Below are positions 4,792 to 59,834 of a stretch of DNA of 64,000 bases, one piece after another. Position numbers and translations under genes: made by a program. The stretch lies in NCBI GenBank assembly GCA_026417895.1, contig JAOACJ010000014.1, positions 63 through 64,062 of the forward strand. Reading direction: 5' to 3'. The notes beneath the pieces were generated by a model. The model ran no database searches, was not told where the DNA came from, and saw only the letters and a list, made by a program, of their open reading frames with translations. Each line of letters starts with the position of its first letter. The first letter of the stretch is position 1. Source of the DNA: Patescibacteria group bacterium. Its GTDB lineage: Bacteria > Patescibacteriota > Patescibacteriia > UBA2591 > CALHIP01.

Positions 4792-4801
4792 AGTAAAAAA
4801 T

Positions 4802-36839: not shown

Positions 36840-36844
36840 AATTT

Positions 36845-37921: not shown

Positions 37922-37955
37922 AAATTAGCAATGGGAATTTGAATATTGTCTTATC

Positions 37956-39161: not shown

Positions 39162-39225
39162 ACCAATTTTCTTATCTCTTAAAAATTTTAAGATATCATT
39201 GAAAAAATTTTTACTAGAAAATTGA

Positions 39226-39311
39226 GTACCCGCGTACAGGGCCGTTAGGCGGTTTCGCCTTTAGTCTTTCTCTGTCGGAAGTTTATCGCTGGAATAAGTG
39301 CGGGGTAAGGG
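39226..39311 (-). ncRNA. conserved structured element, copy 2 (pilB-pilC intergenic)
   Basis: The minus strand reads 'cccttaccccgcacttattccagcgataaacttcc...aaaggcgaaaccgcctaacgg...gtacgcgggtac'. Same orientation relative to its downstream gene as copy 1. Confidence 0.35.
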
Positions 39312-39364
39312 TTTTCTGGATAAATTTTCTACAACTTTTGTCTTGAAAATTTATATAAAATTCT

Positions 39365-41056: not shown

Positions 41057-41057
41057 A

Positions 41058-41426: not shown

Positions 41427-41487
41427 ATTGCGATACTAATACACCTGAGAGAAGCTAATGATGCGAATTTTTATCATCAATATTCAT

Positions 41488-42708
41488 TTATTTGTTGGTA
41501 TCGATTTGGTCTTTTAATTTCGTCTTTTCGTAGGGGAGGGTAAAATAGAAAGTTGAGCCCTTATTTTCTTCTGATTCAAACCAAATTTTGCCTTTTAAAT
41601 CATCGATAAGTTTTTTAACAATATAAAGGCCCAAACCAGTACCGTCGGGTTGATAACGAAGAGCATTGGGTGCCCGAAAGAATTTTTGAAAAATATCTTT
41701 TTGTTTATCTTTAGGAATACCAATCCCTTCATCTTTGATAGAAATTATAATTTCTGTATCAGTTTTTCCGGCAGTAATTTTAATTTTTCCGCCTGGTCGA
41801 GAATAATTGATGGCATTTGAAAGAATATTATTAAAAATAATCTCTAAGAATTTCTGGTCCAAGAAAACTTTAGGTAAAAACTGCTTTTCAAAAATAATTT
41901 TTAATCCCTTTCCCTCGATTAAAAAATTAAACTGTTTAATTTTTTCTTCTAAAAAGAGATTAAGGTCTGTCTCTTGACTTCTGGTTTTAATTGGTTTTCC
42001 ATCTAAATCAGTAATGGCTAAAAGATCGTTCACTGATTTCATCATTTTTATCTGGGCGCGCTTAATTTCTTCCAGATATTCTCTTTTTTCTACGTCAACT
42101 TTTTTATTCTCAAGTAATTCGTCGGTGATCCAACCAATTGAAGAAATCGGCCCACGTAACTGATGACTGGCAATGGTAATAAACTCACTCTTTTTTTCGT
42201 CAAGTTCTTTCAAAAAATCAATTTCTTTTTTAGCTTGAAGGGCAAGAAGAAAACTTAAATAACTAATAATCGCCACCGAAGAAAGACTTAAAAAAACGAA
42301 ATCAAGAAAAAACGAAATTTTTAACCAGATACTTAAACCAAACATTAAAAGATAATAAAAAACAATAATGATTAATAAACCAATGAGAGCTGGAATATGG
42401 GCAGTGGAAGCGGCGGCTAATAAAGGTAAAAAAATAAAAGGAAAAAGCGGGCTTTGGAAAGAACCGCTGAAGTGGATAAATAAAAGGATAAAAAGGGTAT
42501 AAAAACCTAAATCAATAAAAAATTTTTCATAACGCCAATATCTTTTTGAGATGAAAAATAAACTGATGAACGAATAAAAAGTCATGGCAACGATGATAGA
42601 TAGAAACCAGAGAGATTCTTTAGGTGGGAAAAAATAAAACCAAACGAGGAGAATCAAAATTAAAATTGGCACTACTAAACGAAAAATTTTATGATACTGT
42701 TCGTACAT
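41488..42708 (-). CDS. sensor histidine kinase (polytopic N-terminus, PilS-like)
   Basis: H-box 'ASHQLRGPISS', HATPase 'GTGLGLYIVKKLIDDLKGKIW'. Confidence 0.8.
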   Translation of the reverse strand: MYEQYHKIFRLVVPILILILLVWFYFFPPKESLWFLSIIVAMTFYSFISLFFISKRYWRYEKFFIDLGFYTLFILLFIHFSGSFQSPLFPFIFLPLLAAASTAHIPALIGLLIIIVFYYLLMFGLSIWLKISFFLDFVFLSLSSVAIISYLSFLLALQAKKEIDFLKELDEKKSEFITIASHQLRGPISSIGWITDELLENKKVDVEKREYLEEIKRAQIKMMKSVNDLLAITDLDGKPIKTRSQETDLNLFLEEKIKQFNFLIEGKGLKIIFEKQFLPKVFLDQKFLEIIFNNILSNAINYSRPGGKIKITAGKTDTEIIISIKDEGIGIPKDKQKDIFQKFFRAPNALRYQPDGTGLGLYIVKKLIDDLKGKIWFESEENKGSTFYFTLPYEKTKLKDQIDTNK

Positions 42709-42866
42709 ATTTAAATTTAAAGTTCAGAATCAACTCGCCAAAGTATCAATGTCTTTGATAAACATTATATCATAGAATTTCTTTAATGTCTAATTTTATC
42801 CACAGGACGGCAATTAAAAACGATGGTAAAATGAAATATCAATAAAAAAATTCCACCAGTTATTCT

Positions 42867-43334
42867 ATGAGTATATTCTCATACTTTCGTAAAATTTTCA
42901 TATTTCGCAAAAGCCTCTCTTTTTCCTTTCTCGAAGGTCTTCTGGTTATTGCCATTTTAGGTATTATTTTTTCCTTAAGCACCATTGCTTTCATTCGTTT
43001 CCAAAAAACTTACGAATTGAAAACAACAGCTAATGAATTGTTTCAGAATTTAAAAAGGGCGCAGGCTAAAGCCATGTCCCAAGAACAAGATAAAAATTGG
43101 GGGATAAAATTTGAGCCAGAAAACAAAAAATATTATCTTTGTTCGGATAATTGCACGACTAATCTTGAAACGTTTACTTATTCAACGAACATCAATCTGA
43201 CTTCTTCTCTCAATCCAATTATTTTCCAAAAACTTTCGGGTACACTGACGACGGCTGGCACCATCAATCTTAATCTTGATTCTCAGACTAAAACGATTAC
43301 TATTACGACAGCTGGTTTGATTATTCTTAATTAA
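42867..43334 (+). CDS. prepilin-like protein (atypical, Ser at -1)
   Basis: 'KSLS|FSFLEGLLVIAILGII' has Phe+1, Glu+5 and a hydrophobic helix. Confidence 0.45.
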   Translation: MSIFSYFRKIFIFRKSLSFSFLEGLLVIAILGIIFSLSTIAFIRFQKTYELKTTANELFQNLKRAQAKAMSQEQDKNWGIKFEPENKKYYLCSDNCTTNLETFTYSTNINLTSSLNPIIFQKLSGTLTTAGTINLNLDSQTKTITITTAGLIILN

Positions 43335-43404
43335 AGTTTTCCACAACTAAATTCTAGATTGTCAAAAAAATAATTTGTTCTATAATTAAACCGAAGGTAA
43401 GAAT

Positions 43405-43752
43405 ATGAAAAAGACTAATCTAAAAAAGACTAATGTAAAAAAGACTAAGAAATATACCACCGATGAGGTCAAAAGATATATGAAGATTTTGGCTGAGGAT
43501 TTTGAGGTCAAGGTGAAGGTTATTGCTGAGCAATATTTGAATATCAAAAAGACCCTTGATCAACACACCAAAATTCTTGATTCTCATAGCGCCATTTTAG
43601 CTTCTCATACTGAAACATTAGAAATTATGAAAATTGATATCCAATTCATCAAAAACTCTCTTAAAGAAAAAGAAAAAGTTGATCTGCAAGAATTTAAAGC
43701 CCTGGAAAGGCGAGTGGCTCTTCTTGAAGCAAAGATAAGAGTTTTAAAATAA
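43405..43752 (+). CDS. small helical protein, paralog 1 (T[KT]D[DE]-R-M-L-E family)
   Basis: 'TTDEVKRYMKILAE' aligns with paralog 2 'TKDDMREIMEMLEG'. Confidence 0.35.
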   Translation: MKKTNLKKTNVKKTKKYTTDEVKRYMKILAEDFEVKVKVIAEQYLNIKKTLDQHTKILDSHSAILASHTETLEIMKIDIQFIKNSLKEKEKVDLQEFKALERRVALLEAKIRVLK

Positions 43753-43762
43753 AAAAATAATT

Positions 43763-44674
43763 ATGAAAAGATCTTTTTCTCTCATTGAATTAATGGTTGC
43801 TTTGGGCGTTTTTGTTTTGGTGGCGAGCGCCATCATTTTTTTAGTCATTGGTAGTCAGCAATGGCAAAAGGTTTCTCAAGAAAGAGCAGTTGCTATCCAA
43901 CTGGCTCAAGAGGCGATGGAAGCAGTTCGTTCGATTCGTGACCGCGATTGGAACGAATTAAAAACAGATTCGCGGTGTAGTGAGCAAAATCTAAGAACAC
44001 GAACTTATGGTTTAAAAATTGTCAATAATGCTTGGACTTTAAGTACGCTTGAAATTGATAAAAAAGTGACCCTTAACAACAAAGAATATACCCGCCTCAT
44101 TAAAGTAGATTGTGTTTTTGAAAATGGCATTGCCAATCCAGACAAGAAAAAAATTACCGTTGAAGTTTCCTGGGGTGTCCTACCTGGTCGGTCAATTAGT
44201 TTAGTTTCTTATTTGACCAACTGGCGATCTGCTGATTTTGCCACTAAAACCAAAGGCGATTTTGAAGCCGGCGTTTTTGAAAACACTAAATTAATTGATG
44301 GCAACAATCCGATTATCAAACTTGATGATTTGGCTGGTGCCACCATCCGAGCTAATGAGTTTTTTATTGATGGTTTTACCAACACTTCAGAAATTACCAC
44401 TAACAAAAAAATCTCCTTCCGTTTTACCGCCCAAAACAACAAGACTCCTAATCAGGTCAAATTTTATATTAATCAAGTTTCTCAGCCTGGTACTTTTCGG
44501 GCTGGTTTACAGAACAATGCTAATGGTCAGCCATCCGGCACTTGGCTTTGTTCAAATATCTTTTCGGTCCAACAAAATTTCATCGGTTGGCAAACAGTTA
44601 ATCTTTCCGGTTGCCCAGCAATCGGTCCTAATACCGATTATAAAATTGTCCATCTCGTCATTGAGCCACAATAA
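43763..44674 (+). CDS. prepilin-type minor pilin / pseudopilin (303 aa)
   Basis: 'MKRS|FSLIELMVALGVFVLV'. Confidence 0.65.
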   Translation: MKRSFSLIELMVALGVFVLVASAIIFLVIGSQQWQKVSQERAVAIQLAQEAMEAVRSIRDRDWNELKTDSRCSEQNLRTRTYGLKIVNNAWTLSTLEIDKKVTLNNKEYTRLIKVDCVFENGIANPDKKKITVEVSWGVLPGRSISLVSYLTNWRSADFATKTKGDFEAGVFENTKLIDGNNPIIKLDDLAGATIRANEFFIDGFTNTSEITTNKKISFRFTAQNNKTPNQVKFYINQVSQPGTFRAGLQNNANGQPSGTWLCSNIFSVQQNFIGWQTVNLSGCPAIGPNTDYKIVHLVIEPQ

Positions 44675-44714
44675 AAGCCCTTTCTCAGCATTTAAAAATT
44701 AAAAATTTTAAAGT

Positions 44715-44963
44715 ATGCCTCAAGATAAAATTATTTTAAAATTATTAGAGCATGATGAACGATTAGAGAGAATCGAGGAGAAAATGGCAACAAAAGACGA
44801 TATGAGAGAAATTATGGAAATGCTGGAGGGAATTACCACCATTGCTCAGCGCCTTGATCAAGAAAGAATTTTTACGGCTGAATGGGTTAAGCGCATCGAG
44901 AAAGAAGTTGAAGAACATCGCCAGGAAATTATCAAAATTAAAAAAGTTTTAAAAATTACTTAA
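44715..44963 (+). CDS. small helical protein, paralog 2
   Basis: See paralog 1. Confidence 0.35.
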   Translation: MPQDKIILKLLEHDERLERIEEKMATKDDMREIMEMLEGITTIAQRLDQERIFTAEWVKRIEKEVEEHRQEIIKIKKVLKIT

Positions 44964-44990
44964 AATCTCAATCAATCTCTTTTGTAATTT

Positions 44991-47900
44991 ATGAGGAAAA
45001 AAATTTTTAAAATTTTGTTGCCGGGTTTGGTTACTTTAACCCTCATTTTTTCTTTTTTTGAATTTAACCTTCACTCTTTTTTTCTTCAGGCTCAAGAGGC
45101 AATGAAAATTGAAGTACCAATTGAAATGGTTGACTATGGCTTGGCTTCGTCAAGAGAAGCGACTCTTTTTAATCGGACAAAAATCTTTCTTGACCCCAAT
45201 GATTATCAAGCTGATTCAACCAATTACTTTTTTGAAATCGTGGCTATAAATACAGATGAAAGAGAGGGAAGAGTTGTCTTGGTTGATTCTAAGAAGCAAC
45301 CAGTCGCCGAGATTACTGTACCACCCCAGACCAATCAACCAGCCCGTTTTAGAACAAAAGAGCCTTTTAGTTTATCTCAGGATGAATATCTTATTATACT
45401 GGAAGGAACCTCAGCAGAGAATCAACTTCAGGTTTATGCCGCCAGAATTATTATTCAACAAACGAATCCTCAAGTAACAAGAATCCAAATTCCCTTAACC
45501 AGCGGTCCAGATGATAGTTATTCTTTTAAAGAGACAGCAATTGATCAAGTAGAAAGTGGAAATTATATTCAGCCACAACCTCAATTTTACCATCTCTGGT
45601 CCTATCGTTCTCTTGATTGGGTGAGTTTAGCTGAGAGTAATCCTTTTACCTTAGAAGCTGTTTTAGCCGGCGATATTAGTGCTGCACTTTTTGATCAAAA
45701 TAATCAAATAGTTAGTGGTTCAGAAATTTCTGTCTCCAGCCAAACTCCTCTTTTGATGCAAAAAGATTTTACTGATTTAGTTGATGCTACTTATCAGTTA
45801 AAAATTAGAGGTAGAGAAGGCTTAATTTATCGGGCTGCTCTTTATCTGAGATTAACCAATCCAATAGCTTTAGAAATTTATTATCGTTATCAAAGAATGA
45901 GACAGTCTCAGACAGCTGAAATTAGAAGCTATCAAAGAGTGCTTTATGATGCCAGCCAATTTCCTGAGCATCAGATTTATCATGAAGCAACCGGTCAAGG
46001 GCAAAACCTAATGGCTGTCATTTACGACCATAGTCAAAATGAGAGCGGTACTACCAATGGCAACAACATTGAATCTTCAGCTATTAATTTTAACTCATCA
46101 GAGAAAATATTAATGCGGACTTCTCCTTTTTCTCTAACCTCTGGCAACCGCTTTATTTATTCTGTTCTTGGCGAAAGTGGCGATTTAATTTTAACCAGCG
46201 CCTCAATAGTCATTAAAATTGGTCAGCCAAAAATTGACCAGACCCACTATCGCTGGCGCAATGATAATGGTGGAGAATTGGGCGGTAATTTTGAGGTAGT
46301 TACACTTTTGCCCAATGGTAATGGTGACGAAATTACTTGGACCCCTTATCCTAATACTCCCAATCATTATACTTTAGTCGCTGACGAAAGTGATAACTCA
46401 TACGTTTATAAAACCATTCAGACCGATCTGGCCATTTTCCGTTTCGGTCTTAAAGAAAGTAATGGTTCTGTCTCTAGTTTTTCTGTTACTTTGACAGGAG
46501 ATTATGCTGAGTATTCTTATCAATGGAGTGTTAAACCATCAAATGGTCAGCCTTGGACACCTAGCGCGATTAATGATTTACAGATTGGGGTGGCCTATAA
46601 TATACTTGAAGAAATACCAATACCAGGTAAAGGAGAGATACCTGAAGAAAAAGAAGAATTAGAAGAGTCGTTTCATATTGCAGACCTTTCTTTACCTACT
46701 GGTGTTGTCATTGATTATGTTAAAGTCTTTGTCCGGGCTAAAAGGGTCTGTCGTGTAGGTCCTGAATGGCCTCCAACTTATAATTGTACTGCTTTTACGG
46801 CGAAAATGTGGGCAGAGGTTAAGTATTATCCCGGCGCGACCTATAAAGCTGACGAGGATACGCCCGTGACCAATCAAGTAAAAAATAAAAATGTCCGTTT
46901 AAGATTTTCTTTGAAGAATACCGGCTCAGCTCCAGCGGTTAATTATCAATATCGCCTCCAAGTGGCTCCAAAAGGTACGGCTAGTAGTTGCCTAGAAGTG
47001 CCGCCTGAAAATTATACGGATGTGCCAACAGCTGGGAACTGTGGTTCAGCTGTTGCTTGTATGGCTGATTCTTCATATCTTGATGATGGCCAAGCAACAA
47101 CCTGGCAACTGAGTGGGCCGGGTGAAGATTGGACTTGGGCAGACGGTAAAATAGTTGAAAGGCCTTCTAATCAGACATCTCAATTTACTTTAGAAACGAA
47201 ATCTTTTACGGAATTTGAATATAATTTTCAATTCACTAATAATGCTATTGGCGGCGCTACCTACTGTTTTCGGTTATCAAATGCTGGTGAAGGTTTGGAT
47301 AATTATAATCAAATCGCGGCTATTACCTTATTACAAACACTACCATCTTTCCGTCTTAGAGTCTCCACACCCTTAAATTATAAACAGCCCTATAATCATT
47401 CTGAGCCGGCTAAAAATTTTAATGACTCCGCTTCTAATGTGCTTTATTGGAACGGCTCGTCTTGGCTGGTTCAAAACCAACAACCGATTTATCTTATTGG
47501 TTTTAGCGATGGTAGTTTTGAGGGAAATCCGTATGATGAAGAGAATCAAACCGATAACCAGATTAATAGTTCTTCAATAAAAATTGGTCAACAATTTACC
47601 GTGCCAGCTGGAGCAGCAACTCAAAAAGTCATTCAGACTAGCTTTTATCTTAAAAAGACAGGCAACCCACCAGATCTTCTTCTTACTTTAGAAAAAGTTG
47701 GTGGTAGTTCGGTTACAAAAACTATTTCTGCCAATACCGTCTCTAATCAATATGCTTGGGTCGAAGCACCAGCTTTTGATGAAGCCTTTAATTTAGAAGC
47801 CAATGCCACTTACCGCCTTTATCTTTCTTGTGCTGGCTGTAGTGCAAACAATTATTATCAAGTCAAAAGATTAAAAACAATGAGTGGAATCAATAGTCTG

Positions 47901-50309
47901 ACTTATGATGGTGGCATTGATTCAGGATTAATTTATACTACCACAGGTACCTTTGGCAACCCTATAAATAACGAAGATACTCTTTTCCGTCTTAAAGAAT
48001 TTGCTGGCTTTCCAACTACTGGCAATTATATTTCTGCCCAAACATCTACCGGTAGCACAGCTACTACTTATTCTCATCTTGATTGGAAACAAGAAATTCC
48101 GAGCGGTGAAGTTTGTCCCACCGATCCAGTTCGTTTTCAAATTGGCACCGCTAACTTAGTCAGTGGTAGTTGTCCAGCCAGTCCGAATGCCTATTCCTAT
48201 TATGGCCCAAATGGTATCGGTGGTCCAATGTGGTGGTATGAAGAAAACGGTGTTCGTTGGAAAAAACGGCGTTCGATTACTATCAATAATCCCAGTGGTC
48301 AGGAATTAAAAAATTATCAAATTCTGTTGACTATAAATACCGCCGAATTAATCTCGGCTGGCGAATTACAAAGTGATTGCGATGATCTTCGATTTACCAG
48401 TTTATCTGGTGCCAGTCTAAATTATTGGCTCGAATCTGGTTGTAATACCTCTCAAACAAAAATCTGGGTGAAAATTCCTTATCTTCCTGCTACTCCCACC
48501 TCTAACACTACTAAAATTTATCTTTATTACGGCAACGCCAATGCCTCCTCTGCCAGCAACGGCGATGCGACGTTTATTTTCTTTGATGATTTCAACGGCA
48601 CGAGTTTGGATACGAGCAAATGGACAGAGCAAAAAGGTGGGACAACGAGTTTAAGTGTTAATAATGGTCAGATTACTTTTCATCATCCAGCCGTCCAGGG
48701 TAATTATATTTGGATCTATTCTAATAATAAATTTTCTTACCCAGTTTGGCAGGAGGTGAGATGGATTTCTTTTGACATCAGCGATGCCACGCCTCGATTT
48801 GGACAATCAACGACTACCAATTTAAGGACGAATGGTAATTATTATAATAATTATTCTGCTGATGTGGGTTTCAACTCGGCATATAGAATTGTCGGCGACA
48901 ATTCAAATAGTGGTTGGACTGTTTCTTCTACTTCAGTGAGTGGCCAGCGGCCTGAGATTTGGAGTTTTGCCTGGCCAGCCACTGGTTCGCAAATTTTTAG
49001 AAAAAATTACTCTTTACTATTGACCGGCAGTGATAATATAAACACTATCGCCGATTATTATCTTTATTTAGGCATAGCAGAGCGGACGGCAAATCAGACA
49101 GCTGTTGCTGATTGGGTACGTGTCCGTAAGTACGTCTCAGTAGAGCCAACACAGGGAGGATGGGGTGAAGTAGAAACATATAGTCCAGAAGATTATTACG
49201 CCGGCGACCTAAATACCTACTGCCAAAATGTGACCGGTGGTCAATTCTGTTCCCGCGAAATTTGTCCGGATCGACTGGCTGGCTTTCAATATCGCAAAAA
49301 AATTAACTTAACCGGTGCTCAAGGCGCTGGTAATGGCTATCAAGTGAAATTAAAAATTGGCAAAACTTCAGCTGCCATCGGTGAAGATTTTGACCTCAAT
49401 GGTAATGTTCAAGATTCTTTCAATGATATTAGGTTTACTGATGACGATGGTGTGACTTTATTGAATTACTGGATAGAATCAGTGGCTGATAGTGGCGGAA
49501 CGAAATTAGCGACAGTTTGGGTAAAAGTGAATGATAATTTAGATAATAATCAGTCGATTTATATCTATTATGGCAATGCCAATACCTCTTCAGCCAGCAA
49601 TGGTGAAGGTACTTTCGTTCATTTTCAAGATTGGAATAATTCAAATGGCTGGACTTTAAGCAAATCTTCAGTTTCTAATAGTGAACTTTTTCTTGACCCC
49701 GATGGTTTTCAGCCAGCAGCTTCAGCAAGGCGAACCGAGTTGTTGGGGGCAGGCTATGCTTTGCGAAGTCGACTTGACTGGGCTGATGAAGGCGGGCCAT
49801 GGAAAGAACAAGGGTTTGGTTGGGGTGATTTTGATCACTCATACGAATACGGCAATCATCAGGTTCGAAATGGTATTTGGGTAAGATGTTTCTATGGGTC
49901 ACCTTATCCAACTCAGTTTATTACTAAAAAAGACGGCATTGAAACATACACTCAGGTGACTTCTTTTCGGACAGGAGGATACAACACAGTCGAACTTCGT
50001 TGGCCATCTAATACACGAGCAGAGTTTTCTTTAAATGATGATGCGCCGGTTGTTCATACTACTAATATTCCTACTGGTAGTTATTATCAACATCATTGGT
50101 ATCAGTATTTCGGTACCGCTATTCAAAAAGTAGATTGGACTTTAATTCGTAAATATGTTTATCCGGAGCCAGCTATTCAATCAATCGATGCCCAGGAAAT
50201 AGTCTATCCTCATCAGAACCAGCCCTGCCTACGCTACCGATTTTTACTTCTCAACTGTCAAAACAACTCACCAAAAGTTAAGGAAGTCAAAGTCAATTAT
50301 ACACCATAA
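44991..50309 (+). CDS. giant secreted protein (1772 aa) with two DUF2341-like plus LamG/ConA-like modules
   Basis: Signal peptide. Repeated module 'DCDDLRFTS..LNYWLES...KIWVKIPYLP...KIYLYYGNANASSASNG..TFIFFDDFNG' and 'DIRFTDD..LNYWIES...TVWVKVNDNL...IYIYYGNANTSSASNG..TFVHFQDWN'. Confidence 0.55.
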   Translation: MRKKIFKILLPGLVTLTLIFSFFEFNLHSFFLQAQEAMKIEVPIEMVDYGLASSREATLFNRTKIFLDPNDYQADSTNYFFEIVAINTDEREGRVVLVDSKKQPVAEITVPPQTNQPARFRTKEPFSLSQDEYLIILEGTSAENQLQVYAARIIIQQTNPQVTRIQIPLTSGPDDSYSFKETAIDQVESGNYIQPQPQFYHLWSYRSLDWVSLAESNPFTLEAVLAGDISAALFDQNNQIVSGSEISVSSQTPLLMQKDFTDLVDATYQLKIRGREGLIYRAALYLRLTNPIALEIYYRYQRMRQSQTAEIRSYQRVLYDASQFPEHQIYHEATGQGQNLMAVIYDHSQNESGTTNGNNIESSAINFNSSEKILMRTSPFSLTSGNRFIYSVLGESGDLILTSASIVIKIGQPKIDQTHYRWRNDNGGELGGNFEVVTLLPNGNGDEITWTPYPNTPNHYTLVADESDNSYVYKTIQTDLAIFRFGLKESNGSVSSFSVTLTGDYAEYSYQWSVKPSNGQPWTPSAINDLQIGVAYNILEEIPIPGKGEIPEEKEELEESFHIADLSLPTGVVIDYVKVFVRAKRVCRVGPEWPPTYNCTAFTAKMWAEVKYYPGATYKADEDTPVTNQVKNKNVRLRFSLKNTGSAPAVNYQYRLQVAPKGTASSCLEVPPENYTDVPTAGNCGSAVACMADSSYLDDGQATTWQLSGPGEDWTWADGKIVERPSNQTSQFTLETKSFTEFEYNFQFTNNAIGGATYCFRLSNAGEGLDNYNQIAAITLLQTLPSFRLRVSTPLNYKQPYNHSEPAKNFNDSASNVLYWNGSSWLVQNQQPIYLIGFSDGSFEGNPYDEENQTDNQINSSSIKIGQQFTVPAGAATQKVIQTSFYLKKTGNPPDLLLTLEKVGGSSVTKTISANTVSNQYAWVEAPAFDEAFNLEANATYRLYLSCAGCSANNYYQVKRLKTMSGINSLTYDGGIDSGLIYTTTGTFGNPINNEDTLFRLKEFAGFPTTGNYISAQTSTGSTATTYSHLDWKQEIPSGEVCPTDPVRFQIGTANLVSGSCPASPNAYSYYGPNGIGGPMWWYEENGVRWKKRRSITINNPSGQELKNYQILLTINTAELISAGELQSDCDDLRFTSLSGASLNYWLESGCNTSQTKIWVKIPYLPATPTSNTTKIYLYYGNANASSASNGDATFIFFDDFNGTSLDTSKWTEQKGGTTSLSVNNGQITFHHPAVQGNYIWIYSNNKFSYPVWQEVRWISFDISDATPRFGQSTTTNLRTNGNYYNNYSADVGFNSAYRIVGDNSNSGWTVSSTSVSGQRPEIWSFAWPATGSQIFRKNYSLLLTGSDNINTIADYYLYLGIAERTANQTAVADWVRVRKYVSVEPTQGGWGEVETYSPEDYYAGDLNTYCQNVTGGQFCSREICPDRLAGFQYRKKINLTGAQGAGNGYQVKLKIGKTSAAIGEDFDLNGNVQDSFNDIRFTDDDGVTLLNYWIESVADSGGTKLATVWVKVNDNLDNNQSIYIYYGNANTSSASNGEGTFVHFQDWNNSNGWTLSKSSVSNSELFLDPDGFQPAASARRTELLGAGYALRSRLDWADEGGPWKEQGFGWGDFDHSYEYGNHQVRNGIWVRCFYGSPYPTQFITKKDGIETYTQVTSFRTGGYNTVELRWPSNTRAEFSLNDDAPVVHTTNIPTGSYYQHHWYQYFGTAIQKVDWTLIRKYVYPEPAIQSIDAQEIVYPHQNQPCLRYRFLLLNCQNNSPKVKEVKVNYTP

Positions 50310-50372
50310 AATAAAATTTTTAATTTCTAATTTTGAATTTTGAATAAATTTTTAATGGTCTAATTTTGAAAG

Positions 50373-50678
50373 ATGAAGAAATATGATTTAGAAGAGAGAA
50401 CGGCAAATTTCGGTGAAAAGGTAATTAAATTCTGTAAAAATTTAAAACAAGATGCTATTTCTAAACCGATTATCAGTCAATTAATTCGCTCAAGCACGAG
50501 TATCGGTGCCAATTATATGGAAGCTAACGCTGCCAGTTCAAAGAGAGATTTCAAAAATAAAATTTTTATCTGTAAAAAAGAAACTCAAGAAACAAAACAC
50601 TGGTTACGGATGTTGGCTCAATATTTCTCAGAGAGAAGCAGTGAAATCAAAAACTTTGGCAAGAGGCACAAGAGTTGA
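50373..50678 (+). CDS. four-helix-bundle protein (23S rRNA intervening-sequence protein family)
   Basis: 'SQLIRSSTSIGANYMEA...KRDFKNKIFICKKETQETKHWL' matches the family pattern. Confidence 0.65.
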   Translation: MKKYDLEERTANFGEKVIKFCKNLKQDAISKPIISQLIRSSTSIGANYMEANAASSKRDFKNKIFICKKETQETKHWLRMLAQYFSERSSEIKNFGKRHKS

Positions 50679-50718
50679 CTTTAATTTTCGGCAAAATTAT
50701 TGGCTCACTCAATAAAAA

Positions 50719-51459
50719 ATGATTTTTAAAATTCAAAAATTCAAAATTGATTCAAAATTAAAAATTCAGAATTCAGAATTGACAAATAAAGGTTTTACTC
50801 TCATTGAAATTCTCTTATACTTGGCCATTGTTTCGGTAGTGCTGGTTGTCGGCACTATTTTTATTTGGCAGGTCATTGAGGGTGGCGAGCGGGCGAATCA
50901 ATTAGAAGAACTGCGCGAAGCCAGCCGTTTTGTTTTAGAAAAAATCAGTCAAGAGGTAAAAAAAGCTAGAAATGTTTTAGATCCACCGAGTTGTCAGAAA
51001 TTTACCAATCAAACAGATTGTCAAAGTTATTGGGCTTGTCTCTGGCAGAATAACAAATGTTTTGTTACTTGCACTAGATACAACAATCAGCCTGATTGCG
51101 AAAATCATAATTGTATCTGGAGTAACGGTGTCTGCAGTGGCAGTGAGCCAAAAAATCTCTGCCCAGTCGATCCGGAAAACAATAAAGAAACTTGTTTAAC
51201 GATTGCCAAACCTGATGGAACTATGGTTAAATTTTATCGCCAAACTTATACAAATGTGAAAAGGATTGTTCAAAAAACAGGAAACAACGAGCCAGTAGGT
51301 TTGACCTCTGGCTTAGTTGACATTACTTCGTTGAAAATTGCTAATCTTTCACCCGACAAAGGATCAGGCATCATTAGAATCGAAATGACCTTAAAACACA
51401 AAAATAATCCACGTCTAACCTTTACTGCCCAATCTTCTATTTCTTTACGCGATAATTAA
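50719..51459 (+). CDS. prepilin-type protein with Cys-rich globular domain
   Basis: 'TNKG|FTLIEILLYLAIVSVV', then 10 Cys ('CQKFTNQTDCQSYWACLW..CFVTC..'). Confidence 0.6.
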   Translation: MIFKIQKFKIDSKLKIQNSELTNKGFTLIEILLYLAIVSVVLVVGTIFIWQVIEGGERANQLEELREASRFVLEKISQEVKKARNVLDPPSCQKFTNQTDCQSYWACLWQNNKCFVTCTRYNNQPDCENHNCIWSNGVCSGSEPKNLCPVDPENNKETCLTIAKPDGTMVKFYRQTYTNVKRIVQKTGNNEPVGLTSGLVDITSLKIANLSPDKGSGIIRIEMTLKHKNNPRLTFTAQSSISLRDN

Positions 51460-53540: not shown

Positions 53541-54199
53541 ATGATTACCGGTCTCCTAGCCATTGGGCTTGGCTATTTGCTTGGCTCAATTTCGCCATCA
53601 TATTTCTTGACTAAATGGCTTAAAGGGGTTGATATTCGCAAACTTGGCGATGGTAATGCTGGCGCAAGAAATGTTTATCACAGTGTCGGACTGGTGCCAG
53701 CCATAATCACCGGATTAATTGATCTTTCAAAAGGGGTGGGAGTTATTTTGATTTCTTCTTTGTTCGCGCCTTTAATTTTCTCTTATCTGGCTGGCTTAGC
53801 AGCAGTCGTTGGTCATATTTTTCCTTTTTATTTAAAATTTCGTGGTGGTCAGGGTGGAGCGACTTTAAGTGGAATTCTACTTTTTTTATTTTTCAACTTC
53901 GTTTTCAAGGCCAAATCTCTTGGTCTTTATTTTTTATTCTCTTAGTGGCGGGTCTAATTTTTATTTATATCACTAAATTAGGTCCCTTTGCCGGACTAGT
54001 CTGTCTGCCATTTCTTATTTTTGGCATTTTAATGGAAACCTCTCTTAATTTAACTACCGGTTTTGTGATATTTTTATTAGCGATAAGCCTCTTTCAACTC
54101 ATTCGTTATTTTTTCTCTCAAGGAAAGATCAGACAATGGATTTTTAAAAAGGAATTAACGATTGAAGAAAAGACAGAGCTCCTTCGTTGGCGAACCTTA
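53541..54199 (+). pseudogene. plsY: glycerol-3-phosphate acyltransferase PlsY, interrupted by a frameshift near 53940
   Basis: Frame 1 runs 'LGSISPSYFLTKWLKGVDIRKLGDGNAGARNV...GGQGGATLSG', then stops. The C-terminal part ('VAGLIFIYITKLGPFAGLV...LIRYFFSQGKIRQW') continues in another frame after a T-run. Confidence 0.55.
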
Positions 54200-54748
54200 A
54201 TGAGACCTTTGGGCGTCTTCATTATTATTTTTTATTTTTTATTTGGTAAGACGATCATTCTCTTTTTAATTGGTTTGGTCAGTGTAATTTTTATCCTCGT
54301 TGACGTTTCTCGTCTTAGTTTTCAAAAATTTAATATCTTTCTCTTGAAAAATTTATTTATTAAACAAAAAGAAATAAAAATATTTTCCTCAATGAGTCTT
54401 TTTACGAGCGCCTCCTTTATTTTCCTCCTGATTTTTGAAAAAAGAATTGCTTTCTTGGCTATTCTTTATCTTGTTTTCGGTGATCTTTTTGCTAAAGTGA
54501 TTGGTACTTTCTTCGGTCGACAAAAATTTTTTACTAAAACTCTAGAAGGAACACTGGCTTATTTCACCTCTTGTCTACTTTTTGGCTTCTTTTTCAGTTA
54601 TTTTTTTGAAATTTCATCTTTGACAATGATAGTTGGTGCTTTCACTGCTGCTTTTTCCGAAGCTCTGCCTTTGGGTATTGATGATAATTTCAGCGTTGAC
54701 CTTCTCTCTGCTACCACCATGTATTTAGTTAATCTGATCTTCGTATAA
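54200..54748 (+). CDS. CdsA/dolichol-kinase-family (CTP-transferase) membrane protein
   Basis: 'GDLFAKVIGTFFGRQKFFTKTLEGTLAYF' is the signature of the CTP_transf_1 family. The start is uncertain, and the ORF is continuous with the plsY C-terminal frame. Confidence 0.5.
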   Translation: MRPLGVFIIIFYFLFGKTIILFLIGLVSVIFILVDVSRLSFQKFNIFLLKNLFIKQKEIKIFSSMSLFTSASFIFLLIFEKRIAFLAILYLVFGDLFAKVIGTFFGRQKFFTKTLEGTLAYFTSCLLFGFFFSYFFEISSLTMIVGAFTAAFSEALPLGIDDNFSVDLLSATTMYLVNLIFV

Positions 54749-55020
54749 ACCGTCTTATTTTTTAATGCGGTCGTTGGTAAATTTAAGACGGAGAATGGCT
54801 AAAGATTGATAAAAATGAGGTGAAAAAATGAAAAAATAAGTGAATTGACCATTTCTAAAATTCATTTATAATAGAAAAAATTCAATTTTGATTTGTAATA
54901 AAATAAAAGCAAGAGACGGAAACTTAACATTCTCATGTTTTTAAGAATGCTAGAATATTGAGAAAGTATAAAAATAAAATTGGAAATTAAATAATTTAAT
55001 CAAATTTTAAGTAAAATCAT

Positions 55021-58000
55021 ATGATCAAAGAAGCAATGAAGAAAATTTTATCCTGGTTTTTATCAGGAGTTCTGATTTTTTCAGGATTCTTTGTTGTTTT
55101 GGAAAAACCAGTCAGAGCGGAATGGGCGAATTATGTGGTTATTAGTGAGTTTGCGACCCGCGGTTCAACTAGTGCCTATGATGAGTTTGTTGAATTATAT
55201 AATCCGACTGAAAATATTGTTGATATCAGTGGTTGGAAATTACAATATTGGGGCGGCAGTACCTGGACCACCAAATTAACAATTCCGTCTGGAACAAAAA
55301 TTTTACCCCACCGGTATTATTTAATGTCTTCTTCGTCTCAATATTTTACTACCACAGTTTCTGATCTAACCCATAATTCATATTTGGCTCTGGCTGATGG
55401 CACAGCAGGAGATCCGCGAGGGATCAGAATAATTACTGCTGATAATATGGTAATAGATACAATAATATACGAAGCGGACGGCGGAACTGATAATTCCCTT
55501 GCGGAGGGTGGGAAGACAGCTCCTGCCCCTAATTATCGTGCCAACACTTATAACAGAAGCGTAGAAAGAAAGCCTGGTGGAGAAAGTGGCAACGGACAAG
55601 ATACAAATATCAATGGTCATGATTTTTTTGTAAGAGATCAAAGGGACCCAACGAACTCTCAAGCCTTACCTCGACCACCAATTGAGCAACCACCGTCGTC
55701 GCAACCGCAATGCGGAAACGGTACCTGTGAAACAGGAGAAAGTTCAGAAAACTGTCCCCAAGATTGTCAGTTAAATCAACCAGTTTGCGGTAATAATCTT
55801 AAAGAAGAAAAGGAAGAATGTGACAAGACTGATTTGGCCGGCCAAACTTGTATGACGCTCGGCTTTGTGAGTGGCACTTTAAGCTGTAATAATAATTGTA
55901 CTTTTAATACCTCTCAATGTACTTCTGGCGGTAGCTATCCACCGCCGATAGTTGAACAAGTCAAGCCAGGCGATATTGCTATTAATGAATTTGTTTCTGA
56001 TCCGGTTGATGGTGAAGAGGAGTGGATTGAGCTCTATAATAACACTGACAAAGAAATTGATTTAACAAATTGGCAAATTGAAGAAGGATCGGGGGTACGA
56101 ACAACTTTGTCCGGCACAATTAGTTCAAAGAGTTTTTTTGTTGTTGAAAAAATTAAAGGTTATTTAAACAACTCAGGTGACATTATTATTTTAAGAGGGG
56201 CCAATGGTCGAATTATTGATCAAGTTGTTTATGGCAGTTGGGATGATGGCAATAGAGAAGATAATGCGCCAGCAACCAAAGACCCAAATTCGGTAGCGCG
56301 AGTGGTCGATGGTCAAGATACGGATCGTGACTATTTAGATTTCAAAATTTCCACTTTACCAACAAAAAATGCACCTAATAAATTTGAAGAAGAGAAAGAA
56401 TATCCTTTTGGTGTAATTTTTAACGAACTTTTACCAAATCCTAAGGGCGATGATTCGGAAAATGAATTTATTGAATTAAAAAATCTCAATGATTTTGAAG
56501 TTAATTTAGAAAATTGGCGATTAGAAGACGCCAGTGGGACAAAATTTGTTATTTCTTCACAAAAATTATCTTCGACGAAAATTCCAGGACGTGGCTTTTT
56601 TATCCTTTGGCGTCGGGATTCAAAAATCGCTTTAAATAATTCTGGCAGTGAAAGAGTAAAACTCTATCAACCAAATGATAATTTAGTTGATGAAATCAGC
56701 TACAGCGGGACAGTTGCTGAAGACATTGCCTATGCCAAAGAGGAAACAAAAAATTGGTTTTTGACTACACAACCAACACCAGGACAAGAGAATATTATTA
56801 AGAAGGTTAATCAGAAACCAAAGGCGGTAATCTCGGCACCGAATAAAGCCTTGGTCAACGAAGAAATAATTTTTGATGCTTCTGATTCTTACGATCCAGA
56901 TGGTGATGGTTTAACTTATCTTTGGGATTTTGGTGACCAGACAAGGAGTAACGAGGTGGTGGCTAAACATTTTTATAAAAAAACAGGCAAATTTAATGTC
57001 AAACTTGAAGTTAAGGACAGTCTTGGCGAAAGCGAGGTGGTGAAATTAAGTCTTGAAATTTTACCTAACGAAAAAAAATTTTCTTATAGTCCACTTGAGG
57101 CAGAAATTTTTATCAGCGAATTTTTACCTAATCCAAAAGGGAGAGACGAGGCAGAATGGATAGAAATTTTTAATAATGGCGACAGAGAAGTCGATTTGTC
57201 GGGTTGGTTTTTAGATGACATGGATGGGGGAAGTAAACCGTATCAAATAAAAGAAGGGATAAAAATTTTGCCAGGTGAACATTTACTTTTTGAACGCAAA
57301 GAGACAAAAATTGCTTTAAATAATAATTTTGATTCTGTCAGAATTTTAGATCCAGAAGGAAATTTATTTTTTGAAGTCACCTACGAAAAACCAAAAGAAG
57401 GGTTTTCTTATGCTTTAGATGAAAATAGTGAATGGCGGTGGACATCGCTTTTAACCCCTGGTCAGAAAAATTTATTTAGTAGTGAAGAAGAGATAAAAAC
57501 AAAAAAGTCTTCAGCTAAAATAGCTGGCGAAGGGGAAAAATTTTTAGAAACTCCTTTATCAGAAGTAAGAAATCAAGAGATTGGTGATTTAGTTAAAACC
57601 CAAGGTATTGTTTCGGTTGAACCTGGTATTTTAGGAAAACAAATTTTTTATCTGGCTGGCTCAGGAATCCAAATTTATTCTTATCAGAAAGATTTTCCTT
57701 CTCTTAAACTCGGTGATCAAATTGAAGTAAGAGGTGAATTGGCCGAATATAAAAACGAAACGAGAATTAAAATTGCTTCCAAAGATGACATTAAAATTTT
57801 GGAAAGTAAAACTCCGCCCGAGCCAAAAAAAGTTAAAACTGGCGAGGTTGACGAAAGTTTAGAAGGAAATCTGGTGCTTATTGAAGGACAGTTAATCGAA
57901 TCGAGAACGAATTATTTTTATTTAGATGATGGCTCCGGCGAAGTTAAAGTTTATCTCAAAGCAACAGCCGGTCTTAAAAAACCAAAAATGAAAGAAGGTA

Positions 58001-58275
58001 ATTGGCTAAGGGTTATTGGCATTGTTGGACAGTATGGCGAAGAATATCGACTTTATCCACGCTATCAAAGTGATTTAGAAATAATTCAAAAACCAGAGGA
58101 AGATGTGGTGCTGACAACCGCTTCATTATCTGAAACGAAACCTCTTTTTGAAAGAATTAATCCTTTTTCAAAAAGCAGCCAATCAGAAAAAATCAAATAT
58201 CTTTCTTTAAGTGCTTTAACTTTGTTGATTATTTTAATTAGTCTTTTACTTCGAAGTCGAAGAAAAAAATATTGA
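55021..58275 (+). CDS. cell-surface protein with four lamin-tail-domain repeats, a PKD domain, a C-terminal OB-fold-like domain and a TM anchor
   Basis: Repeats 'VISEFATRGS..DEFVELYNPT', 'INEFVSDPVDGEEEWIELYNNT', 'IFNELLPNPKGDDSENEFIELKNL', 'FISEFLPNPKGRDEAEWIEIFNNG'. PKD 'DASDSYDPDGDGLTYLWDFGD'. C-terminal hydrophobic anchor plus 'RSRRKKY'. Confidence 0.6.
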   Translation: MIKEAMKKILSWFLSGVLIFSGFFVVLEKPVRAEWANYVVISEFATRGSTSAYDEFVELYNPTENIVDISGWKLQYWGGSTWTTKLTIPSGTKILPHRYYLMSSSSQYFTTTVSDLTHNSYLALADGTAGDPRGIRIITADNMVIDTIIYEADGGTDNSLAEGGKTAPAPNYRANTYNRSVERKPGGESGNGQDTNINGHDFFVRDQRDPTNSQALPRPPIEQPPSSQPQCGNGTCETGESSENCPQDCQLNQPVCGNNLKEEKEECDKTDLAGQTCMTLGFVSGTLSCNNNCTFNTSQCTSGGSYPPPIVEQVKPGDIAINEFVSDPVDGEEEWIELYNNTDKEIDLTNWQIEEGSGVRTTLSGTISSKSFFVVEKIKGYLNNSGDIIILRGANGRIIDQVVYGSWDDGNREDNAPATKDPNSVARVVDGQDTDRDYLDFKISTLPTKNAPNKFEEEKEYPFGVIFNELLPNPKGDDSENEFIELKNLNDFEVNLENWRLEDASGTKFVISSQKLSSTKIPGRGFFILWRRDSKIALNNSGSERVKLYQPNDNLVDEISYSGTVAEDIAYAKEETKNWFLTTQPTPGQENIIKKVNQKPKAVISAPNKALVNEEIIFDASDSYDPDGDGLTYLWDFGDQTRSNEVVAKHFYKKTGKFNVKLEVKDSLGESEVVKLSLEILPNEKKFSYSPLEAEIFISEFLPNPKGRDEAEWIEIFNNGDREVDLSGWFLDDMDGGSKPYQIKEGIKILPGEHLLFERKETKIALNNNFDSVRILDPEGNLFFEVTYEKPKEGFSYALDENSEWRWTSLLTPGQKNLFSSEEEIKTKKSSAKIAGEGEKFLETPLSEVRNQEIGDLVKTQGIVSVEPGILGKQIFYLAGSGIQIYSYQKDFPSLKLGDQIEVRGELAEYKNETRIKIASKDDIKILESKTPPEPKKVKTGEVDESLEGNLVLIEGQLIESRTNYFYLDDGSGEVKVYLKATAGLKKPKMKEGNWLRVIGIVGQYGEEYRLYPRYQSDLEIIQKPEEDVVLTTASLSETKPLFERINPFSKSSQSEKIKYLSLSALTLLIILISLLLRSRRKKY

Positions 58276-58387: not shown

Positions 58388-59123
58388 ATTTTTTGGACAC
58401 CTTTTATTATCATTGTCGTCTGGTTTTTGGCTGGTTTGCGAGTCGTTCAACAATACGAAAGGGGTGTTGTTTTAACTCTTGGCCGTTATTCTTCAACTCG
58501 TTTGCCGGGGCTAAATTGGATTCTGGTTGGTATTCAAAAAATGATCAAGGTTGATGTCCGAGTCAGAACTATTGATATTCCTAGACAGGAAGTCATTACT
58601 TCTGATAATGTCACTGTTGGTATTAACGCCGTAGTTTTTGTTAGAGTAGAACGAGCCGAAGATGCGGTTTTAAAAGTTCAGGACCATGTCTATGTCATTT
58701 CTCAATATGCCTTAGGTGCCTTGCGTGATGTCATTGGTGGCGTAGAACTTGATGTTTTATTAACCCAAAGAGAGAGAATTGCCGAAGAGATTAAAAAAAA
58801 TTGTTGACCAAGCCACTGAGCCTTGGGGAATTGATGTACCGGAAATTAAAATTCAAGACATTGAACTACCGGCCGAAATAAAAAGAGCCTTGGCAAAGCA
58901 AGCCGAGGCGGAAAGAGAAAGACGGGCGGTAATTATTAAAGCCGAAGGTGAATTAAAAGCTTCAGAAAATTTATCGGCAGCAGCGGCAAAATTAGCTAGT
59001 ATGCCTGGCGGCTTAACTTTAAGAACTTTAAAAACGATTGAACAGATTAATCCCGATCCTTCAAAAACTGTTATTTTCGCTTTACCGATAGAAATTATTG
59101 AAGCCTTGAAAAAAAATTGGTAG
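58388..59123 (+). pseudogene. SPFH/band-7 (stomatin-like) gene with a frameshift in an A8 run and no standard start before the TM helix
   Basis: 'VVQQYERGVVLTLGR...' in frame 1 and 'IVDQATEPWGIDV...' in frame 2 join if one A is removed at 58793-58800. Confidence 0.55.
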
Positions 59124-59834
59124 TCAGAAGTAATTTTATCTCATTTCTTTCAAAAACTCTGTGGCTAATTTCGCAGTTTCGGTTATGCTTTGATAATATG
59201 CTTTGATAAAACGATTTCCAAACAATAACGATATCGACGTCGTTAAAAATTGCCCGTTGTACTTCTTGAATTGTGTTACCGCCAGCTAAAGCCAGCAAAA
59301 TATCATATTGACCTTTAATTCTAGCAATCTCATGATAAGGAATTGACTTGTTTTATGCTTCTTTGTCTACACCACAATGAATAATCACGGCGGTGGGTAA
59401 TTTCTTAAGTTTTCGCAAAACAGAAAAAGAGAATTCAAAATTTATCATGTCAATCATTGAATCGATTTTGAATTCCTGACAAGCCTCAACAAAAGTATTA
59501 AGGGTTGATATGGGAGCTACGCCAAACGCCACGACGGCTGAGGCACCAGCCTGAGTCGCCAATTTGACTTCTGTTTTGTTCGGCCGCGATCCATCGTTTT
59601 CAAATCAGCCACAACATAAGGAAAACCTTGAAAACCAACAAGGCGAGCCGCCCACCAATTTCTCAGTCGACTAATGGCATTCAGCCCGTAAGTTTTAATC
59701 AAGGGTGTGCCGGCTTCGATAATAATACGATCAGAAACTGGTAACTGGCTAATAATTTTTCCTGCTTCTTCTAAAGTTGAATTGAGGGCGATTTGGAGAT
59801 ACTGTTTTTTGCGATTAAGCTTGAAACTTTCCAT
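59095..59834 (-). pseudogene. 3-hexulose-6-phosphate synthase / KGPDC-family gene split into three frames
   Basis: 'LQIALNSTLEEAGKI...IIEAGTPLIKTYGL...ADLKTMD' and 'LATQAGASAVVAFGV...HCGVDKEA' and 'LALAGGNTIQEVQRA' are collinear with HPS but lie in three different frames. Confidence 0.55.

Follow-up and report, generated by a model that had tools for sequence, protein, structure and literature searches.

A nuclease-free lamin tail and twin OB-fold protein of Patescibacteria, a candidate extracellular nucleic-acid binder

Domain architecture of the LTD-OB protein

We analysed a stretch of 64,000 nucleotides from a Patescibacteria group bacterium (assembly GCA_026417895.1, contig JAOACJ010000014.1, positions 63 to 64,062; hereafter the window), in which a gene at 55021..58275 on the plus strand encodes a predicted surface protein with four lamin tail domains (LTDs), a PKD domain and two C-terminal OB folds. 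Its open reading frame (ORF) starts with ATG, is complete and uninterrupted, and codes for 1084 amino acids plus the stop. The product is 100% identical to the homolog numbered P0001, which NCBI names 'MAG: lamin tail domain-containing protein [Patescibacteria group bacterium]'. The LTD-OB family to which it belongs is uncharacterised and widespread in Patescibacteria (candidate phyla radiation, CPR). Its members are publicly named 'lamin tail domain-containing protein', 'PKD repeat protein' or, by a COG-based label, 'DNA/RNA endonuclease YhcR'. In a library search, no paper was found in which 'lamin tail domain' and 'Patescibacteria' occur together; a lamin tail domain protein of a CPR genome was mentioned once, in passing, and the LTD-OB family itself was not treated. 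The window has a G+C content of ~33% and also encodes a type IV pilus (T4P), penicillin-binding proteins, a Mur ligase, LigA, GatA and deoxyhypusine synthase, a gene content that agrees with a Patescibacteria/CPR origin.

The domains were assigned by scanning Pfam and NCBIfam with the whole protein and then with eight separate pieces of it. The first 33 residues (55021..55119, plus strand, as are all features of this gene) read as a signal peptide with a basic n-region, a hydrophobic core and a putative VRA/E cleavage site, and the region is modelled as a helix (residues 2-27) in the full-length AlphaFold2 prediction. LTD1 (residues 38-215; 55132..55665; 48.0 bits, E = 1.8e-12) is divergent, carries insertions, is modelled as beta strands and forms a variable distal 'head'. 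It is followed by a cysteine-rich spacer (residues 231-300; 55711..55920) with ten cysteines in CGNGxCExGE...C..DC-type repeats and no histidine, a segment missing from the description given in an earlier, sequence-only reading of this DNA. No Pfam match was found for the spacer in the window protein; for comparison, DUF4215 is recorded for the homolog P0114. Further downstream lie LTD2 (residues 315-448; 55963..56364; 63.9 bits, E = 2.1e-17), LTD3 (residues 465-590; 56413..56790; 61.2 bits, E = 1.5e-16), the PKD domain (residues 597-681; 56809..57063) and LTD4 (residues 694-812; 57100..57456; 61.3 bits, E = 1.4e-16).

The sequence-only reading had counted four LTDs and one PKD domain, and both counts were borne out. 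Each LTD alone exceeds the PF00932 gathering score of 34.3 bits, which places all four in this family, and the whole protein reaches 212.8 bits (E = 1.1e-63) over four stretches; pairwise identity among the four is 20-36%. The core motif that the same reading had ascribed to all of them, 'I.EF.PNP...DE..EWIEL.N', can be read letter for letter in LTD3 and LTD4 but only approximately in LTD1 and LTD2. The PKD domain was matched by PKD_4 (1.7e-18, residues 597-672) and PKD (4.5e-11); its nearest PDB sequences are the PKD domains of the collagenases ColH and ColG (up to 8e-23), with a fold match at a TM-score of ~0.9.

Among the invariant residues of LTD2 are N322, E323, P328, E334, E337, N340, N383, N384, G386 and D387. 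Across 40 homologs, the invariant positions of LTD2-4 (residues 322-387, 469-540 and 700-768) are nearly all Asn, Asp, Glu, Pro or Gly, in the pattern N-E...P...E..E..N ... N-N.G-D. It is tempting to speculate that this pattern is a cation-binding site, and that Ca2+ might let the acidic LTDs meet phosphate-rich polymers.

In the full-length AlphaFold2 model (pLDDT 79.2, pTM 0.34), the protein is a chain of beta-rich units with no long helix apart from those of the signal peptide and the transmembrane (TM) segment. The cysteine-rich spacer has a low pLDDT of 41-69, and segments without a Pfam assignment are extensions of the LTD sandwiches or low-confidence linkers. Every domain of the stalk has a net charge of -4 to -13; the OB units, with 0 and +1, are the sole non-acidic parts.

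The C-terminal region forms two OB folds ahead of a predicted membrane anchor

The C-terminal region had been likened to a single OB domain of about 150 residues, resembling BOF and tRNA_anti-type folds. Pfam, AlphaFold2 and Foldseek all support the OB fold, but the region holds two of them over ~170 residues: OB1 (residues 857-929; 57589..57807), with the motifs QIFY, GIQIY and GE.RIK and a pLDDT above 90, and OB2 (residues 951-1022; 57871..58086). The tRNA_anti-codon family (PF01336), a nucleic-acid OB fold, matched the whole protein in two stretches at 32.2 bits (cutoff 27); OB2 scanned alone scored 25.5 bits and the isolated twin-OB module 38.5 bits. BOF/YgiW-YdeI models (PF04076, NF033674) gave no match in the window protein, whose architecture also sets it outside that family of small periplasmic proteins with a single OB fold. 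Five of 35 family modules gave weak BOF matches (best 3.7e-4).

A separate AlphaFold2 model of residues 835-1084, built from an alignment of 40 sequences, has a mean pLDDT of 88.9 and a pTM of 0.73, and shows a pair of five-stranded barrels followed by a disordered stretch and, at the end, a long helix. When this model was compared to the PDB with Foldseek, the top matches were all OB-fold nucleic-acid binders. They include the tandem OB folds of Teb1 AB (4.6e-7), POT1, HIN-200 with dsDNA, RPA70 A/B, Thermus SSB and P. abyssi RPA, and the single OB folds of RMI2 and of the anticodon-binding domains of Asn-, Lys- and Asp-tRNA synthetases. By sequence, the twin-OB profile found nothing significant in the PDB (best E 0.044), and the fold comparison alone was informative here.

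Several residues of both barrels are strongly conserved. In OB1, G862, P868, F876, Y877, G882, P893 and G905 are invariant and E913, R915 and K917 nearly so; in OB2, G1000, P1013, R1014 and D1018 are invariant, and Y978 and K980 nearly so. Y886 likewise belongs to the invariant or nearly invariant OB residues. The aromatic and basic residues among them (F876, Y877, Y886, R915, K917, Y978, K980 and R1014) would correspond to the set that OB folds use for nucleic acids.

Downstream of OB2, a disordered tether (residues 1027-1052; 58099..58176; pLDDT below 50 in both models) leads to the tail KIKYLSLSALTLLIILISLLLRSRRKKY (residues 1057-1084; 58189..58272), which combines a K-Y-L signature, a TM helix and a basic cluster. 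The anchor proposed by the sequence-only reading is thus matched by a predicted helix at residues 1054-1083, ending in RSRRKKY.

The protein contains no detectable enzyme

No nuclease domain was found by Pfam or NCBIfam, either in the whole protein or in the eight pieces, nor by a Foldseek search with the full-length AlphaFold2 model, in agreement with the sequence-only reading. A hidden nuclease was considered and rejected: the full-length model consists only of beta-sandwich and OB units, Foldseek returned no enzyme fold, and the all-beta nature of the model therefore leaves no nuclease domain concealed. The cysteine-rich spacer lacks histidine and is therefore not an HNH or His-Me finger.

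We compared the protein with three known kinds of DNA-handling surface proteins. The endonuclease/exonuclease/phosphatase (EEP) domain, the catalytic part of ExeM/NucH nucleases, was not found by Pfam. NCBIfam matches to these nucleases were partial, confined to the LTD and OB parts and far below threshold (24.4-29.1 bits against a cutoff of 300 for ExeM_NucH_DNase, NF033681; 37.8 bits against 1300 for ExeM, NF033680). SNase and 5'-nucleotidase domains, as in YhcR, gave no match in the window protein with Pfam or NCBIfam, and P0001 was also negative in a jackhmmer search with the S. aureus nuclease. The helix-hairpin-helix (HhH) of ComEA (HHH_3/HhH) was not found in the window protein by Pfam.

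The twin-OB module is homologous to the OB region of surface nucleases

When 35 family modules were scanned in isolation, all 35 matched PF01336 and 31 matched DUF5689. DUF4131, which we take to be the N-terminal OB domain of ComEC, was weakly matched by six. Positions 33-117 of the 546 in NF033681, the OB part of ExeM_NucH_DNase, were matched by 34 of 35 family members (best E 8.3e-10), among which the window protein gave E = 1.2e-5 in full length and 4.7e-7 with the isolated module. The relation to ExeM/NucH-type nucleases suggested by the sequence-only reading is real and covers the LTD as well as the OB part. ExeM consists of a signal peptide, an LTD, a region with two putative OB folds, an EEP domain and a C-terminal hydrophobic signal; deletion of the OB region abolishes its activity, while deletion of the LTD merely reduces it (PMC6085458). 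The same holds for Vibrio Xds, in which the OB region is essential and the LTD largely dispensable (PMC6746945).

A second line of evidence comes from fusions. In 50 diverse module-bearing representatives we found LTDs in 38, SNase in five and HhH in one. Among all 259 module-bearing proteins, on which the following counts are based, five have the architecture SP-LTD-SNase-LTD-(twin OB)x2-TM (SP, signal peptide), as found by a local jackhmmer search with the S. aureus nuclease as query. Four of the five match the catalytic SNase motif DGDT...RLxGIDxPE, and the fifth (P0210) carries a variant recognised by eye (VVDGDIIE...RLIGVDAPE). In nine other cases out of 259, a canonical ComEA-type HhH at the N-terminus is followed by LTDs, the twin OB and a TM helix. 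Given the homology to the OB region of ExeM/NucH and the SNase and ComEA-HhH fusions, the function with the best support is DNA binding or the capture of a substrate, as the sequence-only reading had proposed, although its argument from the nearby pilus genes failed (see below).

Some observations on SNases in the surroundings of these genes may be added here. A nuclease-less gene (P0036, locus L002) and an SNase-bearing one (P0138, locus L007) both lie near PolX and RuvB genes, a hint that each form may occupy the corresponding position in its own lineage. Lipoprotein SNase homologs adjoin the LTD-OB gene in L009 (518-1369, plus strand) and L049 (4782-5630, minus strand), one of which is the genome of the close homolog P0010; they have lipoboxes ending in TGC and SGC, the motif DGDT...RYIGIDTPE and a Cys-rich C-terminal extension. 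A linked partnership with these lipoproteins was rejected, as they are adjacent in two of 80 loci, which is about the chance level.

Comparison with known surface proteins

The ExeM/NucH/Xds nucleases (NF033680, NF033681) of Shewanella, Aeromonas and Vibrio have in common with the window protein a signal peptide, an N-terminal LTD, an OB region, a C-terminal hydrophobic anchor and envelope association. Two OB folds are predicted in ExeM and one is annotated in Xds, and these are homologous to the OB region studied here. In contrast to these nucleases, the window protein has no EEP domain, has four LTDs instead of one, and has a PKD domain and a Cys-rich spacer in addition. Moreover, its OB pair is C-terminal, right before the anchor, its tail is not of the GlyGly-CTERM type, and it comes from a monoderm-like CPR bacterium.

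Bacillus subtilis YhcR, a wall-anchored sugar-non-specific nuclease, likewise has tandem tRNA_anti-codon-type OB folds at the cell surface. We take it to consist of two OB folds, an SNase, a 5'-nucleotidase domain and an LPXTG anchor. Its architecture is given in Table 2 of PMC3929857. YhcR combines the OB module with an SNase, as do the five relatives of the window protein described above. The window protein itself, unlike YhcR, has no SNase, 5'-nucleotidase or LPXTG, and it has LTDs and a PKD domain, which YhcR lacks. Several homologs bear the JGI COG-based name 'DNA/RNA endonuclease YhcR with UshA esterase domain', and the label 'DNA/RNA endonuclease YhcR' on family members is misleading.

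LTDs are also found on surface proteins that process extracellular DNA (eDNA) with differing catalytic folds, namely Haloferax volcanii Hvo_1477 (PMC3929857) and a 1,049-aa LTD/OB/nuclease protein of Ca. Izemoplasma, which is encoded among nuclease and nucleoside-transporter genes (PMC8289736). Both are surface-anchored and join LTDs to DNA-processing modules as well as to a nuclease domain; the window protein has no such domain and its gene lies outside any DNA-degradation locus. With ComEA, the membrane-anchored dsDNA receptor of competence, the principle proposed to be common is a non-catalytic DNA-binding module at the outer face of the membrane. The window protein is nonetheless not a homolog of ComEA: its presumed DNA-binding module is a tandem OB instead of HhH, and it is anchored at the C-terminus and ~5 times larger. 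The protein lacks the defining parts of ExeM/NucH, YhcR and ComEA; a homologous OB region links it to the first two, and to ExeM/NucH the LTD as well. The most fitting description is a nuclease-less form of the LTD and OB kind of surface nuclease.

Distribution of the family in Patescibacteria

With the full-length protein as query, 953 of 8,000 scored candidates had E<=1e-5. Among the matches listed, nearly all were from Patescibacteria sources and had the same LTD, PKD and OB Pfam content. The nuclease-free architecture is kept at 36-71% identity in more than 100 clusters, a conservation which argues that it is under selection.

This bears on the possibility that the gene has decayed from an ExeM/YhcR-type nuclease gene through loss of the catalytic domain and is now without function. 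The domain content does equal that of a surface nuclease minus the enzyme. However, the ORF is intact over 1084 codons, the nuclease-free form recurs in all those clusters with dozens of invariant residues, and the twin-OB module is found in 1,347 representative clusters at E<=1e-30. We consider decay highly improbable.

The latter count was obtained with a twin-OB profile in a representative library of 1.84 billion proteins, in which 6,597 clusters were matched at E<=1e-3. A single-sequence search with the C-terminal region had returned just seven short fragments, and it was the profile search of representatives that revealed the spread of the module. Each of the 132 new top-scoring representatives carries the module at its C-terminus, where no more than 108 residues follow (median 55), and 23 of the 132 have two to six copies.

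In a scan of species-representative genomes, 159 loci were confirmed, and all counts given here out of 80 loci refer to the best 80 of these 159 (1.21 Mb). The best 80 comprise Magasanik-, Falkow-, Buchanan-, Uhr- and Kuenenbacteria, Parcubacteria and Patescibacteria groups, besides some placeholder or probably mis-binned labels. L009, L013, L021, L026, L035, L038, L058 and others carry a CPR-type gene under 'uncultured Gammaproteobacteria bacterium' titles (TPA/binchicken assemblies), and one module-bearing contig is titled 'Candidatus Methylomirabilis sp.'; these titles are probably placeholder labels or belong to mis-binned contigs. Another module-bearing contig is an 886-kb chromosome (OZ246416.1).

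A proposed role in the capture of extracellular DNA

Taken together, we put at about evens the proposal that this is a non-catalytic, envelope-tethered extracellular nucleic-acid binder or DNA-capture protein of Patescibacteria. Judged from its sequence and predicted folds, the protein would probably bind extracellular DNA rather than cut it. It would be exported by its Sec-type signal peptide, and the C-terminal TM helix would hold it in the cytoplasmic membrane with the basic tail toward the cytoplasm. The disordered tether of ~26 residues would then lead to the membrane-adjacent OB pair, homologous to the OB region that ExeM and Xds need for DNA. Outward from there LTD4, PKD, LTD3, LTD2, the disulfide-rich spacer and LTD1 would follow, forming an acidic beta-sandwich chain that spans the cell wall. 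In this way the protein may capture or retain DNA, possibly also RNA, at the envelope and make it available to surface nucleases from other genes or to uptake by ComEC, in an organism that would be unable to make its own nucleotides. CPR bacteria have no nucleotide synthesis, and ComEC, DprA, ComFC and T4P are conserved in them (PMC10633639).

Several points weigh against DNA capture. Oligosaccharides and proteins are further possible ligands of OB folds, and OB folds of the BOF/YgiW type were among the matches too. A membrane-proximal OB pair beneath a long stalk is an odd place for a first contact with DNA in the predicted topology, and the stalk is so strongly acidic that the LTDs would repel DNA unless cations bridge the two. 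A DNA-specific extra domain is present in only ~5% of module-bearing proteins. Conserved linkage to com, T4P or secreted nuclease genes was not found in seven homolog neighbourhoods and 80 loci. Finally, the whole-protein fold resembles adhesins and S-layer proteins in Foldseek, and carbohydrate-binding heads were found by scanning close homologs: CBM96 in P0008 and CBM_4_9 in P0104. CBM96 is also recorded for P0010 and P0013 in precomputed Pfam lists.

The last two points lead to a different explanation, an adhesin or host-attachment fibre in which the LTD/PKD chain presents a variable head, while the OB pair serves as a pedestal or binds the cell's own wall polymers (teichoic-acid-like polyanions or peptidoglycan). 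The model is indeed a bead-on-string chain of beta-sandwiches, matched best in the PDB by the GhpA grappling hook, the giant adhesins SiiE and MpIBP, and S-layer proteins. Of 119 homologs, 118 are colinear over the core from residue 305 to 1030 (LTD2, LTD3, PKD, LTD4, OB, OB), but only 8-24 over the variable N-terminal ~300 residues, and the CBM heads named above are among the alternatives. Epibiotic Patescibacteria also need multiple adhesins (PMC10633639). On the other hand, the eight alternative N-terminal heads that we scanned were mostly just further, more divergent LTDs, some with PKD or TSP3 modules. An adhesin also leaves unexplained the most conserved and always-present part of the protein, the nucleic-acid-type OB pair homologous to that of ExeM/NucH, and the recurrent gain of SNase or ComEA-HhH on the same scaffold. 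SiiE, MpIBP, RTX adhesins and Aureispira GhpA do extend a beta-sandwich chain off the cell as the window protein would. Adhesins of this type use type I secretion/RTX or type IX secretion features. The window protein is in contrast much shorter and would be exported by Sec and held by a TM helix, and a nucleic-acid-type OB pair is not known from any of those adhesins. We regard an adhesin as the main rival reading, possible if rather unlikely.

The same fold comparison bears on a structural, S-layer-like envelope protein without a specific ligand. SbsB, EA1 and an archaeal S-layer PKD protein are among the fold matches, and the window protein is acidic, repetitive, Ig-rich and, by prediction, membrane-anchored. 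No lattice-forming or SLH-type domain was found in it, however, the invariant aromatic and basic OB residues point to a ligand site, and the SNase and HhH fusions speak against such a role as well, so a purely structural protein appears improbable.

To return to DNA capture, much of bacterial diversity belongs to the Patescibacteria, and Saccharibacteria among them are naturally competent. The LTD-OB family keeps the substrate-binding parts of surface DNases, namely LTDs and twin OB, usually without the enzyme and occasionally with SNase or ComEA-type domains, and thus offers a concrete candidate for the capture step that can be put to the test, as an OB pair of this small size lends itself to expression. 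In a bolder form, which we offer tentatively and think unlikely as a whole, the family might be an unrecognised envelope DNA receptor of Patescibacteria. A tandem OB on a wall-spanning LTD stalk would then do the job of ComEA for ComEC, holding or ratcheting the DNA, or would feed surface nucleases, and the K-Y-L/TM/basic tail would possibly be a new family-specific sorting signal or docking helix. If true, such a receptor would explain how organisms without nucleotide synthesis scavenge DNA and are naturally competent. DNA capture would also bear on the long-unexplained pairing of bacterial lamin tail domains with eDNA-processing proteins. If the protein were an adhesin instead, it would still be a conserved and abundant surface fibre of CPR cells.

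A conserved signature at the C-terminal tail

Of the 259 module-bearing proteins, 174 share a tail signature with fixed spacing, (E)K-Y-L-(T)-A-(T)-A-G-G-L..I-L.G-L..K/R. It consists of K-Y-L and 16 hydrophobic residues, with G at +14 and often AGG at +5 to +7, and has K or R at exactly +18. No curated model of a known C-terminal sorting signal (LPXTG, GlyGly-CTERM, PEP-CTERM etc.) reached its threshold. GlyGly-CTERM matched neither the window tail, which has no GG, nor seven family tails at E<=10. The LPXTG_anchor model scored 14 bits against a cutoff of 15.9 and covered only the TM and basic part. In a local tail search among 763 ORFs of eight CPR stretches (212 kb), the LTD-OB genes alone matched. 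A 41-aa tail profile run against 5.8 billion proteins returned one 44-aa fragment, a result made uninformative by the size of the database. As far as the searched model libraries show, the K-Y-L/TM/basic tail is undescribed; it could be a CPR sorting signal or a helix that docks to a partner.

In module-bearing proteins of other lineages (P0128, P0129, P0130, P0132 and P0143), LPXTG-like ends (VPETG, MPRTG, LPKAG, LPTTG) replace the K-Y-L tail, and these proteins have two to six copies of the module. Such ends fit a surface display of module-bearing proteins.

Genomic context and the type IV pilus locus

A T4P locus lies at 36351-51459 on the same strand and encodes a pilin, PilM, PilC, PilB, a response regulator, a histidine kinase and minor pilins. 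The LTD-OB gene starts 3,562 bp past its end. The protein might thus be a dedicated accessory or DNA receptor of the neighbouring pilus and competence machinery, the more so as T4P and Com proteins cooperate in DNA uptake of CPR bacteria (PMC10633639). However, five unrelated genes (AI-2E transporter, DivIC, unknown ORF, PlsY, membrane ORF) stand between the two. In addition, a promoter-like site, TTGACC-16 nt-TATAAT (54845..54872, plus strand), identified only by its 11 of 12 matches to the consensus, lies in a 272-bp gap just ahead of the LTD-OB gene. This site suggests that the LTD-OB gene may be transcribed on its own, independently of the upstream genes.

The sequence-only reading had argued from the nearness of the T4P locus, and this argument did not hold in relatives. 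No pil or com gene was present in any of the seven homolog neighbourhoods looked up. Within 10 kb of the gene, a PilB-family ATPase was found in six of 80 loci and any T4P gene in ~10 of 80, close to a chance level of ~6%. This level is a rough estimate and not a computed null; it supposes a 1-Mb genome with ~3 such ATPases and a span of 20 kb. Among the neighbourhoods looked up, in those of the three closest relatives the LTD-OB gene instead stands beside a block of arginase, deoxyhypusine synthase, ATP-cone/Mrr, DUF5667 and LigA genes; in the window, the arginase-deoxyhypusine synthase-LigA block is ~40 kb away from it. We therefore rejected a conserved linkage to T4P or com genes, as would be needed for an operon component, and consider a dedicated pilus accessory quite improbable.

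When neighbouring genes were clustered without preconceptions, the only recurrent arrangement was a clade-specific synteny in ~33 of 80 loci (L011-L087), consisting of LTD-OB, ftsK, an MBL-fold protein and gyrA. The ftsK gene is often directly downstream on the same strand, with gaps down to 7-31 bp (in L080, 2-2548 followed by 2555-4969). This neighbourhood looks like housekeeping synteny, though FtsK is a DNA translocase. The MBL-fold neighbour, present in 24 of 80 loci, was considered as an extracellular partner and rejected because it has no signal peptide and must thus be cytoplasmic.

Several other features of the window were noted. Upstream of the LTD-OB gene, the PlsY-like ORF (53541-53945, plus strand, 134 aa) covers profile positions 1-106 of 164 and abuts a 267-aa multi-pass membrane ORF without a Pfam match (53945-54748, plus strand); the two may represent a frameshifted or fused gene. 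Downstream, two overlapping ORFs (58427-58807 and 58779-59123, plus strand; profile positions 2-124 and 120-175) together make up an SPFH/Band 7 gene; the split could be due to a frameshift, a sequencing error or a pseudogene. A 105-aa ORF at 59517-59834 on the minus strand matches the first third of orotidine 5'-monophosphate decarboxylase (profile positions 2-69 of 221) and may be a pyrF remnant, fitting the loss of nucleotide biosynthesis. Farther away, at 25957-28014 on the minus strand, is a 685-aa ORF with no Pfam match at E<=0.01. Within the minor-pilin cluster of the T4P locus, a 1772-aa protein with two DUF2341 domains is encoded at 44991-50309 (plus strand), and directly after it, between pilin-like genes, lies a small gene of the '23S rRNA intervening sequence protein' family (50373-50678, plus strand).

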